NCBI GenBank assembly: GCA_052327205.1
Contig: CM126220.1
Location: 11,098,001 to 11,162,000 of the forward strand
From: Somniosus microcephalus
Lineage: Eukaryota
Direction of reading: 5' to 3'
Length of the DNA: 64,000 nt
Shown here piece after piece: positions 41,169 to 63,555 of this stretch (position 1 is its first letter; the number at the start of each line of letters is the position of its first letter). Below the pieces are notes generated by a model that saw only the letters and a program-made list of their open reading frames with translations, was not told the origin of the DNA and did not search any database. The translations under genes and the position numbers were made by a program.

Positions 41169-41298
41169 NNNNNNNNNNNNNNNNNNNNNNNNNNNNNNNN
41201 NNNNNNNNNNNNNNNNNNNNNNNNNNNNNNNNNNNNNNNNNNNNNNNNNNNNNNNNNNNNNNNNNNNNNNNNNNNNNNNNNNNNNNNNNNNNNNNNNN
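41169..41298. other. Assembly gap (130 N)
   Basis: Run of N. Confidence 1.
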
Positions 41299-56254: not shown

Positions 56255-56590
56255 TTCGCCTTCTCCCATCCTGGTCGTCGCATGACACAACGATAATGGA
56301 ATTGTTGACAAATCACAGCGATCAATTCATCTACAACAGACCCAGACATGAGGTGAGGAAAACCCCCAGTGGTGGAGAGCTTTGGGAACCTGAGGTTCAA
56401 AGTCACCTGTTCCTCCCGAGCTCGCTACGCTCACCCCATGTCATGTCTCACATTACTCATATACTGGATCCCAAAGTGTTAATTTCTGAAAGAAATCTAT
56501 TTAATTTGCATTTGAACGAGTCAATACTAACTTGCCATTGTCTCCCTAGGGAGCCTGTTCCATAGATTGACCCCTAGCTCACTGAAATAT
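56255..56590 (-). mobile_element. CR1-type 3' fragment, inverted homolog of 63190-63555
   Basis: GAGGTGAGGAAAACCCCCAGTGGTGGAGAGCTTTGGGAACC is the reverse complement of about 63376-63417. Confidence 0.8.
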
Positions 56591-56591
56591 T

Positions 56592-57529
56592 GGCCCCGAT
56601 ATTAATGGGGAGGTGTTGGGGGGGAGCGGGAAAACCCCAGCAAAGCTGGGGACGTGGAGGTCCTGCAGGACCATCTAATTTGACAGGCTGGCCGGCTGCA
56701 GAGCAGGAAAACTAGCGGTAGGCAGCCGCAGCCGGTGACCCTTGGAAACGGTCATCGGCGGGGCGGTGGGTGTGGGAGTGAGAGATCATCAGGGCTGGGT
56801 GGGGGGAGGGAGAGAAAGGCCATTGTGGCAGGGGGTTGTGTTAGGGCATGTCAGCAGAGGGAAGGCCGAAGGCTTCCTTGAGGAGCCAGGGAGGGGGTTG
56901 TGTTAGGGCATGTCAGCAGAGGGAAGGCCGAAGGCTTCCTTGAGGAGCCAGGGAGGGGGTTGTGTTAGGGCATGTCAGCAGAGGGAAGGCCGAAGGCTTC
57001 CTTGAGGAGCCAGGGAGGGGGTTGTGTTAGGGCATGTCAGCAGAGGGAAGGCCGAAGGCTTCCTTGAGGAGCCAGGGAGGGGGTTGTGTTAGGGCATGTC
57101 AGCAGAGGGAAGGCCGAAGGCTTCCTTGAGGAGCCAGGGAGGGGGTTGTGTTAGGGCATGTCAGCAGAGGGAAGGCCGAAGGCTTCCTTGAGGAGCCAGG
57201 GAGAGCATTCCTGCTCATCCTGGCCCACAAGGAGCGCTGTGAAAGACACCTTGTTGAACCGGCAGCTCCCGCCTCCTTTTCACTGCCGTGTTTCCCGAGC
57301 CTTGGGAAACCCGCGCAGCAACTGTTAAATTTAAATCGGGCTCCCAATTGCACTGCCTGAAGTGCCCCACCTCTCGACAGCAGGACACTTCCACGACACG
57401 AAACCCACCGCCATAAAAACAGCAATGGGTACGTAATGGAGTGGGTTGGGGGACGCGTTCCCCATTTCTAAATTTTTCACCCACCCGGCAACCCCCTCCG
57501 CCCATCGTGGGGCGGTTATTGTCAAGGCC
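56592..57529. mobile_element. GC-rich non-autonomous DNA transposon-like element with imperfect TIRs, hosting the 62-bp array
   Basis: att|GGCCCCGATATTAA ... TTATTGTCAAGGCC|aat; G-rich left arm, C-rich right arm. Confidence 0.5.
56831..57202 (+). repeat. Perfect tandem array, 6 x 62 bp
   Basis: Unit GGGGGTTGTGTTAGGGCATGTCAGCAGAGGGAAGGCCGAAGGCTTCCTTGAGGAGCCAGGGA; TTAGGG at 56841, 56903, 56965, 57027, 57089 and 57151. Confidence 0.97.
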
Positions 57530-58208
57530 AATGTGTCCGCAGATTATTTTTGACTTTTAACAACTTCAAGACATTAACTATAAGACCCAATTTTCTCTTG
57601 AGCAGGAAGTGCTGCCGATGTGAGATGGGTGTGCGACATTTCCCAAGGTGCGGAAGGAGGGAGGGAGTTGGTACTTGGGGTGGGGACCCTCCATCGGGAC
57701 ACCATGACGGCTGGGTGTTCTGCACCTTTGGTGTCGAACTGCTTTTTTTCTTCTCCCAGGCATCTGGACGGTTGCAACCTGCTGCACTTTGTCAGTTTCT
57801 CTGCTTCCCTGCCTCAGGCCCACCTCCTGCAGCTATTCACACGTATCTGTGCCCTGGATTTGTCTTTTATTTATTTGATTTCTCTCATTAAGCCTCCTAT
57901 TGCCTCATGTTAATATCTCTTCTGACATTTATTCACCTCCTGTTTTCCACTTTACAGAGCATTCATTTTTTTTGGTCATGCCCTTCCCCTCTACCTTTTG
58001 TTCTGTTTATTTTTTAAATGCGGTTCACCTGTAATATCTTCCAGTTTTGACAACAGGTCCGCACCCAAAACAGCGATTCCTTTGTTCTCTCCACAGATGC
58101 TGCCTGATCTCGAGTGTTTCCGGCATTTTCTGTTTCAGTGGAGTTGAACTGTTTAAAGCACAAAACCTTCATTATTTTACCTCCGGATAATAAATGGGTC
58201 GTCATTTG

Positions 58209-58343: not shown

Positions 58344-58398
58344 GTCGTTTGTGTTGGAAGCGTTGGAGCAATTCCCTTCAGAAGAATCATAAAACCAG

Positions 58399-58631
58399 TG
58401 TGGTAAACCACTGTTATTGTATATTGTTACCTCTGGGTGGCGCTGTGTACCAAGGCATGCCTCAGCTGACTCCGCCCACATGACCAGGTATAAAGGTGGG
58501 GGTTTCGCCGACTCACTTCCTTCTTGGAACCAGCCACCCACGAGAGGCATGCTCTGTTCTCTAGTTAATAAAAGCCTTTTCATCACCTTCCTGATTCATC
58601 GTCTTTTATGGAGTAATTGATAAGCGTATCA
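58399..58631 (+). repeat. 5' LTR (233 bp): GC box 58472-58477, TATAAA 58489-58494, AATAAA 58567-58572
   Basis: Identical by eye to the 3' LTR (offset 4100). Confidence 0.97.
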
Positions 58632-58632
58632 A

Positions 58633-58646
58633 TTTTATTAACTAGA
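58633..58646 (+). promoter_or_regulatory. Non-tRNA primer-binding site, complementary to the element's own LTR
   Basis: TTTTATTAACTAGA is the reverse complement of TCTAGTTAATAAAA (58560-58573); no TGG start. Confidence 0.8.
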
Positions 58647-58652
58647 AGTAAA

Positions 58653-61600
58653 ATGGCGACACCTGAACAGCAACAACAGCAGGCGTTGCTGCGAGCCCTC
58701 AGACCGGCATGCCTGGACCTCGACCCTCAAGCAGCGGGTTCATCAACCAATTTCGAACACTGGCTGAGCTGCTTTGAATCCTTCCTAGGAGCCTCCGCCG
58801 TGACATCGGAGGAGAACAAACTAAAAGTTTTGACCGCCCAGGTGAGCCCTCAAGTATATACGCTCATCCGGGACGCTACTACGTACACGGCGGCCCTCGA
58901 ACTACTAAAAGGGCAATACACACGCCGAGTGAACACGATTTACGCCAGACACCTCTTGGGATCCCGCAGGCAGCAACCGGGGGAATCGGTAGAGGCATTT
59001 TTACGGGCGTTACAGACACTCTGCAGAGACTGCGACTGTAAGGAGGTAACGGCTGCGGGGCACGCGGAGGGACTTACTTGTGATGCCTTCGTCAGGGGCC
59101 TCCAGTCCGACTACTCCCGGCAGAGACTGCTCGAAAGCAAGGAGCTCGACCTGAAGATGGCCGTAGCCCTTGCGCTCTCGCTAGATGCGGCCCACCGAAA
59201 CCTCGAAGCATACTCACGTAACGGCGCCGCGCCATGGCCATCGCGACCGTGGGACATGGGACCGCTGCCCCCGGCACCAACTGCTGCAGCGATGTCCCGA
59301 AATCAACTGGGACAGCCGCCCCCGGTAAGAACCGCAGCGATGCCCCGTAACCAGGCCCAAAAATGCTATTTCTGTGGCCAGTTAAAACACCCTAGAGCGC
59401 ACTGCCCGGCTAAGACCGCTACCTGCTCGGGCTGCGGGAAGAAAGGCCATTACGCCAATGCCTGCAGGGGGAAACCAGCGAACGCCAGCAGCGCCGCGTG
59501 CGAACCATGGGGGCAGCCATCTTATCCGCCATTTTGTGCACCTCCGGCCGCATGGCCGCCGCCATTTTATTCGCCCCACTCAACCGCCACTTCGTCTCCG
59601 GACTCGACCACCGTCTCGTCGGACGACCATACCGACTCACTAAGCCATACACTGGCCTCCGTTACGCTGGATCAAGCCCTCCCTCATCATCTATCCAGCT
59701 CCATGATGGATATCACGGTAAACGGCCGCGCCACCACTTGCCTAATCGACAGCGGGAGCACAGAGAGTTTTATTCACCCAGACACGGTACGTAGCCACTC
59801 CCTCACGGTCCTACCGACGTGCCATCGGATTTCTATGGCGTCCAAGTCCCATTCAATGGACGTCGGCGGCTACTGTGTGGTGACCCTTTCGGTTGGGGGC
59901 ACAGAATATAAAAATTTTAAACTTCTAGTCCTGCCCCGTCTCTGCGCTGCCGTGCTGCTAGGGTTGGATTTTCAGTGCCACCTTAAAAGTGTCACATTAG
60001 CATACGGTGGACCCCTCCCCCCACTCACAGTCTGCAACCAACACCTTTTAAATCGCCCGCCGCAAACCACCTGCAGCCTTTCCACACTAAAAGTCCCCCC
60101 CCCTCCCTTGTTCGCTAACCTCACCCACGACTGTAAACCCATCGCTACCAAGAGCAGGCGGTACAGCGCCGGGGACAGAGCTTTCATTAGCTCTGAGGTG
60201 GAGCGGCTCTTGAAGGAGGGCATTATCGAAGGGAGCACTAGCCCCTGGCGAGCCCAGGTTGTAGTCGTTAAAACCACTGATAAACGCCGCCTGGTCATTG
60301 ACTACAGCCAAACCATAAACCGGTACACTCAGCTGGACGCATACCCCCTTCCTCGCACATCTGATATGGTCAACCAGATTGCGCAATACAAAGTATTCTC
60401 CACCATTGACCTTAAGTCAGCATACCACCAGCTCCCCATCCGCCATGAGGACCGCCAGTATACTGCCTTCGAGGCGAACGGCCGCCTCTACCACTTCCTT
60501 AGGGTTCCCTTCGGCGTCACCAACGGGGTTTCGGTCTTCCAAAGGGAGATGGACCGGATGGTTGACGAGAACGCGCTGCAGGCCACCTTTCCCTATCTGG
60601 ATAACGTCACCATCTGTGGCAACGACCAGCAGGACCATGACGTTAATCTAGAAAAATTCCTCCGTACGGCCCAACGGCTGAACCTAACGTACAATAAAGA
60701 GAAATGTATGTTTCGCACCAAACGCCTCGCCATTCTCGGCTGCATGGTGGAGAACGGAGTCATCGGGCCCGACCCCGACAGAATGCGCCCCCTAATGGAG
60801 CTACCCCTCCCCCACTGCCAAAAAGCACTGAAGAGATGCCTGGGGTTTTTCTCCTACTATGCCCAGTGGGTTCCCCACTATGCAGACAAAGCTAGACCCC
60901 TCATCAAATCCACCTCCTTCCCCCTGACATCAGAGGCGTGTGCAGCCTTCACTCTTATCAAGAGCGATATCGCGAAGGCCACAATGCACGCAGTGGATGA
61001 GTCGATCCCCTTCCAAGTGGAGAGCGATGCATCCGACTTCGCCCTAGCTGCGACCCTTAACCAGGCGGGCAGACCCGTGGCCTTTTTCTCAAGGACCCTC
61101 CAGGGCCCCGAGACCCAACACTCCTCTGTCGAAAAGGAGGCCCAGGCTATTGTGGAAGCGGTGCGTCACTGGAGGCATTACCTGGCCGGAAAACGGTTTA
61201 CCCTGCTCACTGACCAGCGTTCAGTAGCTTTTATGTTTAATAATAAGCAGAGGGGCAAAATCAAGAACGACAAGATCTTGAGGTGGAGAATCGAACTCTC
61301 CACCTACAATTATGATATCTTGTACCGGCCCGGGAAACTAAATGAGCCCCCAGATGCCCTATCACGTGGTACATGCGCCAACGCGCAGGTTGGTAGACTG
61401 CAGACCCTCCACAATGACCTCTGCCACCCGGGGGTCACCAGGTTCTTCCATTTCATCAAATCCCGTAACCTGCCCTACTCCATCGAGGAGGTCAGGACCA
61501 TGACCAGGAACTGCCAAATCTGTGCCAAGTGCAAACCGCACTTTTATAGGCCGGACAGAGCAAGCCTGATCAAGGCCACTCGCCCCTTCGAGCGCCTGAG

Positions 61601-62456
61601 CGTCGATTTTAAAGGGCCCCTCCCCTCCTCTGACCGCAATGTGTACTCCCTCAACATAATTGATGAGTACTCCCGTTTCCCGTTTGCCATCCCTTGCCCA
61701 GACATGACCAGTACCACGGTCATCAAATGTCTGAATGACCTCTTCGCCTTGTTCGGGTTCCCTAGCTATATACATAGCGACAGGGGCTCATCTTTCATGA
61801 GCGACGAACTTCGGCAGTACCTGCTAGCGAGAGGCATTGCTACGAGCAGAACCACCAGCTACAACCCCCGGGGGAACGGCCAGGTGGAAAGAGAGAACGC
61901 GACGGTTTGGAAGGCCGTCCTCTTAGCCTTAAAATCTAAGGGCCTTCCGACCTCTCGCTGGCAGGAGGTCCTCCCTGCGGCGCTCCACTCCATCCGGTCA
62001 CTGCTTTGTACTGCCACTAATGCCACCCCTCATGAGCAAATGTTCGTTTTCCCCAGGAAGTCCACATCGGGAACCTCGCTACCGGCATGGCTGACTTCTC
62101 CTGGGCCTGTCCTACTGCGGAGGCACGTAAGGACCCATAAAACGGACCCCCTGGTCGAGAGGGTGCACCTCCTACACGCCAACCCCCGGTATGCCTGGGT
62201 GACATACCCAGACGGGCGGGAGGACACGGTCTCCATACGAGATCTCGCACCCTCGGGTACCCCTGAACTACCACCGTTATCCCCCACCACCCCTCCCAAT
62301 CCAACCCCTGTAGACGACATGCCGGAGCCCCAGGACCCTTCGTTGACCACCCAGACACCAGATCCGACGTTGGATGCTGCAACACCGCCGCCGCCACCAC
62401 GACGATCAGGACGTCAGACAAGGCCTCCTGATAGACTTAACTACACGAACTTGTAG
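58653..62456 (+). CDS. Gag-Pol polyprotein, 1267 aa, single uninterrupted ORF
   Basis: First ATG (AAAATGG) at 58653. Two CX2CX4HX4C knuckles (CYFCGQLKHPRAHC, CSGCGKKGHYANAC); protease LIDSGS; RT IDLKSAYHQ / PFG / YLDN; RNase H SDAS, EKEA, TDQ, DALSR; integrase HHCC with D (VDFKG), D (HSDRG) and E (NGQVER). No env or chromodomain. Confidence 0.97.
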   Translation: MATPEQQQQQALLRALRPACLDLDPQAAGSSTNFEHWLSCFESFLGASAVTSEENKLKVLTAQVSPQVYTLIRDATTYTAALELLKGQYTRRVNTIYARHLLGSRRQQPGESVEAFLRALQTLCRDCDCKEVTAAGHAEGLTCDAFVRGLQSDYSRQRLLESKELDLKMAVALALSLDAAHRNLEAYSRNGAAPWPSRPWDMGPLPPAPTAAAMSRNQLGQPPPVRTAAMPRNQAQKCYFCGQLKHPRAHCPAKTATCSGCGKKGHYANACRGKPANASSAACEPWGQPSYPPFCAPPAAWPPPFYSPHSTATSSPDSTTVSSDDHTDSLSHTLASVTLDQALPHHLSSSMMDITVNGRATTCLIDSGSTESFIHPDTVRSHSLTVLPTCHRISMASKSHSMDVGGYCVVTLSVGGTEYKNFKLLVLPRLCAAVLLGLDFQCHLKSVTLAYGGPLPPLTVCNQHLLNRPPQTTCSLSTLKVPPPPLFANLTHDCKPIATKSRRYSAGDRAFISSEVERLLKEGIIEGSTSPWRAQVVVVKTTDKRRLVIDYSQTINRYTQLDAYPLPRTSDMVNQIAQYKVFSTIDLKSAYHQLPIRHEDRQYTAFEANGRLYHFLRVPFGVTNGVSVFQREMDRMVDENALQATFPYLDNVTICGNDQQDHDVNLEKFLRTAQRLNLTYNKEKCMFRTKRLAILGCMVENGVIGPDPDRMRPLMELPLPHCQKALKRCLGFFSYYAQWVPHYADKARPLIKSTSFPLTSEACAAFTLIKSDIAKATMHAVDESIPFQVESDASDFALAATLNQAGRPVAFFSRTLQGPETQHSSVEKEAQAIVEAVRHWRHYLAGKRFTLLTDQRSVAFMFNNKQRGKIKNDKILRWRIELSTYNYDILYRPGKLNEPPDALSRGTCANAQVGRLQTLHNDLCHPGVTRFFHFIKSRNLPYSIEEVRTMTRNCQICAKCKPHFYRPDRASLIKATRPFERLSVDFKGPLPSSDRNVYSLNIIDEYSRFPFAIPCPDMTSTTVIKCLNDLFALFGFPSYIHSDRGSSFMSDELRQYLLARGIATSRTTSYNPRGNGQVERENATVWKAVLLALKSKGLPTSRWQEVLPAALHSIRSLLCTATNATPHEQMFVFPRKSTSGTSLPAWLTSPGPVLLRRHVRTHKTDPLVERVHLLHANPRYAWVTYPDGREDTVSIRDLAPSGTPELPPLSPTTPPNPTPVDDMPEPQDPSLTTQTPDPTLDAATPPPPPRRSGRQTRPPDRLNYTNL

Positions 62457-62484
62457 TACCCTTCACCCCGCCGGACTTAATTTT

Positions 62485-62498
62485 AAACAAGGGGTGAA
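62485..62498 (+). promoter_or_regulatory. Polypurine tract
   Basis: AAACAAGGGGTGAA immediately before the 3' LTR. Confidence 0.85.
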
Positions 62499-62731
62499 TG
62501 TGGTAAACCACTGTTATTGTATATTGTTACCTCTGGGTGGCGCTGTGTACCAAGGCATGCCTCAGCTGACTCCGCCCACATGACCAGGTATAAAGGTGGG
62601 GGTTTCGCCGACTCACTTCCTTCTTGGAACCAGCCACCCACGAGAGGCATGCTCTGTTCTCTAGTTAATAAAAGCCTTTTCATCACCTTCCTGATTCATC
62701 GTCTTTTATGGAGTAATTGATAAGCGTATCA
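62499..62731 (+). repeat. 3' LTR (233 bp)
   Basis: TGTGGTAAACC...GCGTATCA followed by TSD ACCAG. Confidence 0.97.
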
Positions 62732-63189
62732 ACCAGCTAATGTGCCCCCGACACTCCTGCGATGTCAAGTGACTCCGAGAGCAAATTGGACACTAGGCCA
62801 TTGTAAGAGGCCCCTGTGCAGTGACTGACTGAATGTACCAACCACTCTGGATAAAGTAGCAGCGACAGTTTGGGCACAACACCCAACTCCTGCTCTGCAC
62901 ATCCGATCAAACCATTGATTCAAGGGCCGGGTTATTCCACCTCCCTCCATCAAGTTTTACGGGGAAGTGGGGCAGTCAGTGGCCCCCAAAATTATTTGCG
63001 TGATGCCGGGGACCAGGATATATACGATAGACTGACCTCTCACCATCCAAAAGATTCACCTTAATTCCACAATAGCAGAAAATCTAGCCCATTTTTAGGT
63101 GCGTTAAGATTTGTACTAGAAATGGTGAAAAATCTTACCTATTCCATATTCAGTTTAATATATATATATATTTTTTTTTTACAATGTTT

Positions 63190-63555
63190 TACAAAACGAA
63201 TCTGCGGACACAATATTTTAGGGAGTGAGTGGCCAATCTATGGAACAGGCTCCCGAGGGAGACAGTGGAAGCAGTTGGTATTGATTCATTCAAATGCAAA
63301 TTAAATTTAAGTAGTGTGAGACATGAGGTGTGGGGAGTGCAGCGAGCACAGGAGCAACAGGTGACTTTGGACCTCTGGTTCCCAAAGCTCTCCACCACTG
63401 GGGGTTTTCCTCACCTCCTGTCTGGGTCTGTTGTGGACTCATTGATAGAGATTGATCGCTGTGATTAGCCAACAACTCCATTATCACATCATGTGAGTAC
63501 TAGGATGGTAGAAGATGGACCTTGGCCTTTTTTCCATCTAGCAATTCCTATTTTC
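63190..63555 (+). mobile_element. CR1-type 3' fragment with long 3' UTR
   Basis: VANLWNRLPRETVEAVGIDSFKCKL is the CR1 ORF2 end; inverted homolog at 56255-56590. Confidence 0.8.

Follow-up and report, generated by a model that had tools for sequence, protein, structure and literature searches.

Reverse transcriptases (RTs) are all stated to have three spaced aspartates (PMC2148107). What the third one does is not settled: in Ty1, the Asp-to-Asn enzyme polymerises and does not transpose. According to the Ty1 report, D211N is active in vitro, whereas D211E and changes at the other two aspartates abolish polymerisation; the kpol of D211N is 223-fold lower and the enzyme prefers Mn2+, and its transposition is lost unless RNase H suppressors are present, which restore 5-10%. 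In that report the residue is linked with the A-site metal and with the release of pyrophosphate (PMC2148107). A further study deals with double aspartate mutants only (PMC10415136). Natural asparagines have been described in motif C of viral RNA-dependent RNA polymerases (RdRps), as ADN in birnaviruses and GDN in negative-strand viruses (PMC9752661). As to priming, the Tf1/Tf2 and Tj1 elements of fission yeasts have been reported to carry a primer site complementary to their own LTR-derived RNA and not to a tRNA (PMC4600332).

Here we describe a Ty3/gypsy retrotransposon from Somniosus microcephalus whose RT reads YLDN where YxDD is expected, and compare it with its relatives in this and other genomes. 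A full-text literature search, with Repbase and GyDB outside it, so that the motif may be in print, returned no paper on a YLDN or YxDN RT.

Results

An intact Ty3/gypsy element with a YLDN motif

All coordinates refer to the window, that is, the whole 64-kb stretch of DNA that was analysed. The YLDN-bearing element is an intact Ty3/gypsy retrotransposon of 4.3 kb (58399-62731) with the following features.

58394..58398, strand not applicable: left target-site duplication ACCAG (window letters)
58399..58631, + strand: 5' LTR, 233 bp, TG...CA ends, identical to the 3' LTR
58489 and 58567, + strand: TATAAA and AATAAA signals, respectively, of the 5' LTR
58560..58573, + strand: LTR segment with the poly(A) signal at its end, candidate self-primer, perfect complement of 58633-58646
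58633..58646, + strand: primer-binding-site position, 1 base past the LTR, not of the TGG tRNA type, pairs with 58560-58573
58653..62456, + strand: single stop-free gag-pol ORF, 1267 aa (Gag, zinc knuckles, protease, RT, RNase H, integrase)
59364..59465, + strand: two Cys/His zinc knuckles of Gag (from the translation)
59709..59972, + strand: aspartic protease, DSG (Pfam PF13650/PF13975)
60279..60746, + strand: RT polymerase core (Pfam RVT_1)
60408..60410, + strand: motif A catalytic aspartate D586, unchanged across the clade
60522..60530, + strand: clade-specific motif B NGV (NAP/SAP in other gypsy lineages and Ty3, QAP in CaMV)
60594..60605, + strand: motif C Y-L-D-N, residues 648-651, TAT CTG GAT AAC
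60603-60605, + strand: N651, third catalytic position, codon AAC (D650 is kept)
61002..61307, + strand: RNase H, with acidic residues D792, E829 and D854 conserved, and also D901 just downstream
61578..61868, + strand: integrase core (Pfam rve), 3' of RNase H as in the Ty3/gypsy order
62485..62498, + strand: polypurine tract (window letters)
62499..62731, + strand: 3' LTR, identical to the 5' LTR
62732..62736, strand not applicable: right target-site duplication ACCAG (window letters)

The sequence-only reading of this locus had taken its identical LTRs and clean target-site duplication as signs of a recent insertion, and this stands: the two LTRs match at 233/233 bases and the 5-bp duplication ACCAG is present at both flanks. 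Direct LTRs with TG...CA ends, a short target-site duplication and a polypurine tract are traits of Metaviridae, and the pol order protease-RT-RNase H-integrase, as given by the Pfam coordinates, is that of Ty3/gypsy. Among named relatives, the nearest come from sharks and rays, with an RT identity of about 80%. A Pfam search of the 1267-aa ORF gave no match to env and none to a chromodomain (E 0.001 for the latter), the 64-kb window contains no tRNA gene, and the ESM Atlas returned generic RT/RNase H clusters only.

The tetrapeptide was also read correctly in the earlier analysis, TAT CTG GAT AAC at 60594-60605 being in frame within the intact ORF. Each of its residues has a counterpart in the aligned YLDD of Ty3 and YVDD of CaMV, and it is therefore motif C of the RT and not a chance occurrence. 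Among solved structures the top sequence match is the Ty3 RT (E 1.8e-49), and an AlphaFold model of the RT (pLDDT 85.9), which bears on the fold level only, ranks the CaMV RT first and the Ty3 RT second in a fold search.

Ty3 is primed by a tRNA and has a gag-pol frameshift. Unlike it, the element described here has one ORF and a self-complementary primer site. The RT of Ty3 (Saccharomyces cerevisiae, 4OL8) shares with ours the fold, the order PR-RT-RH-IN, the motif A aspartate and the first motif C aspartate, and differs in having YLDD with NAP in motif B in place of YLDN with NGV. Cigr-1, whose LTRs measure about 245 bp and whose single ORF measures about 3.6 kb, comes close to our element (233-bp LTRs, 3.8-kb ORF), the comparison being by description only. 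The Cigr-1 clade of Ty3/gypsy elements has been reported from tunicates (Ciona intestinalis) and molluscs (PMC6238403) and from annelids (PMC8556966); the searched text and supplements of these two papers mention neither an RT motif nor a primer site, and the available text of PMC3601003 and PMC3670739 contains nothing by which to name the clade. The Tf1/sushi chromoviruses have a self-complementary primer site in common with the element, whereas their chromodomain is missing here at the same Pfam threshold of E 0.001; as the C-terminus of the integrase gives no chromodomain match, assignment to them was not adopted.

YLDN is the state of the family and of the clade in this genome

The 150 scored genome matches are all 97-100% identical over 220 RT residues, and YLDN is found in each of the 30 copies fetched from them, namely the copy in the window and 29/29 sisters. 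This is the opposite of sisters that all carry YLDD, the outcome that had been named in advance as pointing to a single-copy change. A family-specific pattern applied to the whole genome matched 624 YLDN sites and one YLDD site, the latter in a decayed copy with several deletions. With a pattern of clade-wide motif context, 29,557 YxDN sites stand against 49 YxDD sites; if all were full length, the YxDN elements would make up, as a rough figure, some 2% of the 6.4-Gb assembly.

The control motifs, which also require one A>G change, occur at 48 (YxDS) and 135 (YxGN) sites. Thus the number of YxDD sites matches neutral decay and points to the absence of any sizeable in-clade YxDD helper family, although motif-context patterns are blind to a helper RT whose motif surroundings differ. 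Thirty of the 49 YxDD loci were fetched: 27 lie inside YxDN families and three belong to one distant in-clade YLDD family (loci L043, L044 and L057; L101-L103), which has 3 pattern matches. Two YxDD groups that had looked separate proved to be YxDN families, with asparagine in 34/36 and in the first 100 of 1,150 matches. The small YLDD family coexists in the genome with the YxDN families and has a self-complementary primer site. Four of the 20 fetched clade elements (L092, L098, L100 and L109) are located inside minisatellite arrays.

Asparagine and aspartate have switched repeatedly

Tabulated over this and other genomes, as had been proposed, the motif is YxDN in 98, Y/FxDD in 20 and degraded in 2 of the best 120 of 1,002 homologues. 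A second search, with an insect YLDD member as the query, brought the total to 222 proteins, of which 111 have Asn, 108 Asp and 3 another residue at the third catalytic position. Eight of them were too short for the tree, leaving 214 rows. The addition of metagenome loci (24/80 too short or broken) gave 277 in-clade relatives from sharks, corals, insects, a nematode and metagenomes: 153 with Asn, 122 with Asp and 2 with Lys, both of the latter being degraded records. In the RT phylogeny asparagine is a lineage-level state, and these 277 rows require at least 15 Asn/Asp switches. A single Asn clade was rejected by the AU test (p-AU 1e-5; 61 chosen rows, 36 versus 25).

On the 214-row tree, built with the motif column removed, the state changes 12 times, compared with 71 for shuffled labels. 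By the same tree, D586 is present in 213/213 rows that have a residue there, with no changes, and D650 in 211/214. Of 91 listed cluster members, 53 span the motif, and every one of these agrees with its representative, so that the Asn/Asp state is a property of families. Named carriers of Asn are five sharks and rays, Xenia and Actinostola, and stony corals fall in Asn clusters; named carriers of Asp are Ischnura, Trichuris, an ant, a spider, and several moths and butterflies. The shark and ray branch has Asn in 17/17 rows. The Asp families P0082 and P0077 nest within Asn groups on well-supported branches, and the Asn singleton P0127 nests within the arthropod Asp group. A long stem separates the clade from two other gypsy lineages of the genome, all YLDD (14/14 full-length outgroup rows); within the clade both states reach the deepest branches, so that either may be ancestral. 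By these sequence comparisons YLDN is confirmed as a lineage trait that repeatedly switches between Asn and Asp, and not a private mutation.

One arthropod sub-branch has Phe in place of the motif Tyr, as FIDD or FLDD (P0129, P0131, P0136-P0137, P0141, P0143, P0167, P0179 and P0181), and includes members from the spider Trichonephila. Two clade members, P0014 and P0038, are labelled bacterial; they come from metagenome-assembled genomes and probably represent host contamination of the bins.

Selection and transcription

The 220 RT codons of the element in the window were compared with those of seven further YLDN elements of the genome, which gave a dN/dS of 0.042-0.157 at a dS of 0.21-2.9; each element entered as a single copy, so post-insertion mutations raise dN slightly. 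RNase H and integrase are constrained to a similar degree, and the Asn codon itself varies between AAC and AAT. By these ratios, purifying selection acts on the RT between families with YLDN.

In two RNA runs of a related organism the element is covered in all 30 bins and related elements are transcribed along their length. One of the runs has a clear sense-strand excess over pol; the RNA start and poly(A) sites are not firmly placed by the two runs. Reads over the motif (depth ~990 and ~1,630) vary at third codon positions, and none of the 40 best-supported RNA differences (47 weaker ones exist besides) falls at the first two bases of the Asn codon.

Pairing between primer site and LTR

The 14 bases at 58633-58646 are perfectly complementary to 58560-58573, with a predicted duplex energy of -15.0 kcal/mol. 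Between families the letters change and the pairing persists: a perfect match of at least 10 nt was found in 13 of the 15 delimited elements among 21 genome loci (the other six have no delimited LTR pair). Of 80 metagenome loci, 53 lack a delimited LTR pair; in 19 of the remaining 27 the match is 11-19 nt, above 30 shuffles, with 13 of these 19 coming from one assembly and thus being non-independent. On its own, the 151-nt leader shows no unusual folding (z -1.47), and the evidence for the duplex lies in the conservation of pairing across families.

The pairing partner is located 69-77 nt past the TATA box and is probably inside R. From this conservation, the element likely primes on its own RNA via the duplex of primer-binding site and LTR, and a cut after the poly(A) signal would be required to free the primer. 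Masking of the 5' poly(A) signal may be an alternative or added role of the duplex. In Tf1 and Tj1, by contrast, the partner is described as the 5' end of the mRNA (PMC4600332), whereas here it is a segment ending in the poly(A) signal. The sequence-only reading had raised a link between YLDN and a self-priming group. It holds at the level of the clade and fails as a strict link, since YxDD members pair with their LTR too (L167 over 16 bp, L103 over 11 bp and L102 over 8 bp); self-priming marks the clade and does not explain the asparagine.

Discussion

A probable RT with two catalytic aspartates

We consider it highly probable, at roughly 0.87, that YLDN is the normal motif in a clade of compact Ty3/gypsy elements that is old and spread across animals, and that the RT of this clade works with two catalytic aspartates. 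The sequence-only reading had offered a functional lineage trait as one option: the census and purifying selection uphold the lineage trait, and activity is inferred from copy number, identical LTRs and purifying selection. In such an enzyme, D586 and D650 would bind the two metal ions, and all that the third position would require is what Asp and Asn have in common, the shape and the side-chain oxygen, not the charge; its residue may place the primer end or the A-site metal. Palm changes fixed in the clade, namely NAP to NGV in motif B and Thr two residues past the motif, could form a permissive background, in which case no further change would be expected to accompany each Asn/Asp switch.

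Compared with the two other gypsy lineages of the genome, Ty3 and CaMV, the clade-fixed candidates are G625-V626 in motif B (Ala-Pro in all of these), T653 (Leu elsewhere) and Q855 beside an RNase H aspartate. No residue was found to co-vary with the Asn/Asp state, the best column following it in about 4/10 independent pairs, which is not significant. This fits a background already permissive in the ancestor of the clade. Columns 680, 803 and 676, which have the largest contrast between Asn and Asp rows, were considered as compensating positions and rejected, because they follow the tree and vanish in independent pairs.

Ty1 supplies evidence on both sides. The same substitution at the same catalytic position leaves Asn, and not Glu, active in vitro (PMC2148107), which is the pattern of Asp or Asn seen here; by analogy, the drop in kpol and in transposition counts against an active YLDN RT. 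The two cases differ in that the Ty1 change is engineered and Ty1 is a copia element, whereas here the asparagine is natural, fixed and present in tens of thousands of copies. In the viral RdRps, right-hand polymerases as well, the third catalytic position is likewise a natural Asn; they are RNA-dependent RNA polymerases, and the available text on them describes no back-and-forth switching between sister lineages (PMC9752661).

Among the other explanations, a private GAC>AAC mutation or a sequencing error in a single copy has a negligible chance. The window copy does carry three private amino-acid differences from most sisters in the 220 RT residues, but none is in the motif, and the 29/29 sisters and 624/625 family pattern matches with YLDN refute this suggestion of the first reading. 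Another suggestion, that the polymerase with YLDN is inactive or severely impaired and the element is copied in trans by the YxDD RT of another element, is very unlikely. Donors could be sought in the other gypsy lineages of the genome with YLDD (the 14/14 full-length outgroup rows) or in the 3-copy in-clade YLDD family, whose primer site is similar, and a helper with a different motif context would be missed by pattern searches. Yet in-clade YxDD copies are at the mutation background, and the RT of a passenger would decay, whereas dN/dS is 0.04-0.16 and D586 and D650 are kept over saturating synonymous distance. We give little credence to a gene with Asn that yields a working enzyme with Asp, through A-to-I editing of the first base of the codon or deamidation of the protein. 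AAC and AAT are indeed one A-to-G step from Asp, and apart from degraded records only Asp or Asn is seen at the site. Edited RNA would, however, return to the genome as YxDD DNA, and YxDD (49) is no commoner than YxDS (48); no change at 60603 occurs among the 40 best-supported RNA differences, which excludes a majority-level edit only. Asparagine followed by Val or Ile deamidates slowly.

More serious, and possible though well short of an even chance, is an Asn enzyme that works more slowly or with a shifted metal preference and is kept through rebalanced rates of RNase H and polymerase; it refines the two-aspartate explanation and does not exclude it. Ty1 D211N, with its much reduced kpol, its preference for Mn2+ and its RNase H suppressors, is the model for such an enzyme (PMC2148107), the ADN motif is said to lower the activity of the birnavirus replicase (PMC9752661), and the clade-fixed residues K828 and Q855 adjoin catalytic residues of RNase H. 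On the other hand, the Asn families count about 30,000 copies against 3 pattern matches for the in-clade Asp family, chance Asp copies have not spread, CaMV likewise has Lys at the position of K828, and no RNase H column follows the Asn/Asp state. An extension of the two-aspartate reading is more speculative still, and we regard it as improbable: the clade would have rebuilt the palm so that the third aspartate exchanges freely with asparagine, and in lineages such as sharks and rays Asn would be favoured because it tunes the timing of the polymerase to the RNase H cut for tRNA-free self-priming at the poly(A) signal. If true, this would be the first natural two-carboxylate RT family and would directly explain why Ty1 D211N polymerises but cannot transpose.

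YxDN contradicts a textbook invariant, while the chemistry itself has precedents in the laboratory and in RdRps. To the extent that sequences can tell, this RT active site is both non-canonical and heritable, and the retrotransposon clade that carries it has been very successful. Within this clade Asp and Asn have replaced one another at least 15 times, and in a single vertebrate genome elements with Asn now number about 30,000. Where sister families have different residues here, they provide matched natural enzymes on which the third carboxylate and its dispensability could be tested. If annotation treats an RT with YxDN as inactive, it would be wrong about one of the commonest LTR groups in this genome.

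Other features of the locus

A run of C between protease and RT (60095-60103) is an indel hotspot, as seen in sister loci L005, L025, L026, L029, L009 and L019. Owing to indels in this run, an 822-aa open frame is common to many sister copies; the cause may be true slippage or an error of the assembly. Elsewhere in the window there is a run of 130 N (41169-41298), and at 56830-57203 a 62-bp unit is repeated in six perfect tandem copies. The retrotransposon is flanked by inverted repeats of about 300 bp (56292-56592 / 63211-63485, and also 57532-57552 / 63192-63212), which form four blocks with 86-91% complementarity at a spacing of ~6.7-7.1 kb. They may be a short repeat present twice in opposite orientation, or else the termini of a DNA transposon that hosts the inserted element.
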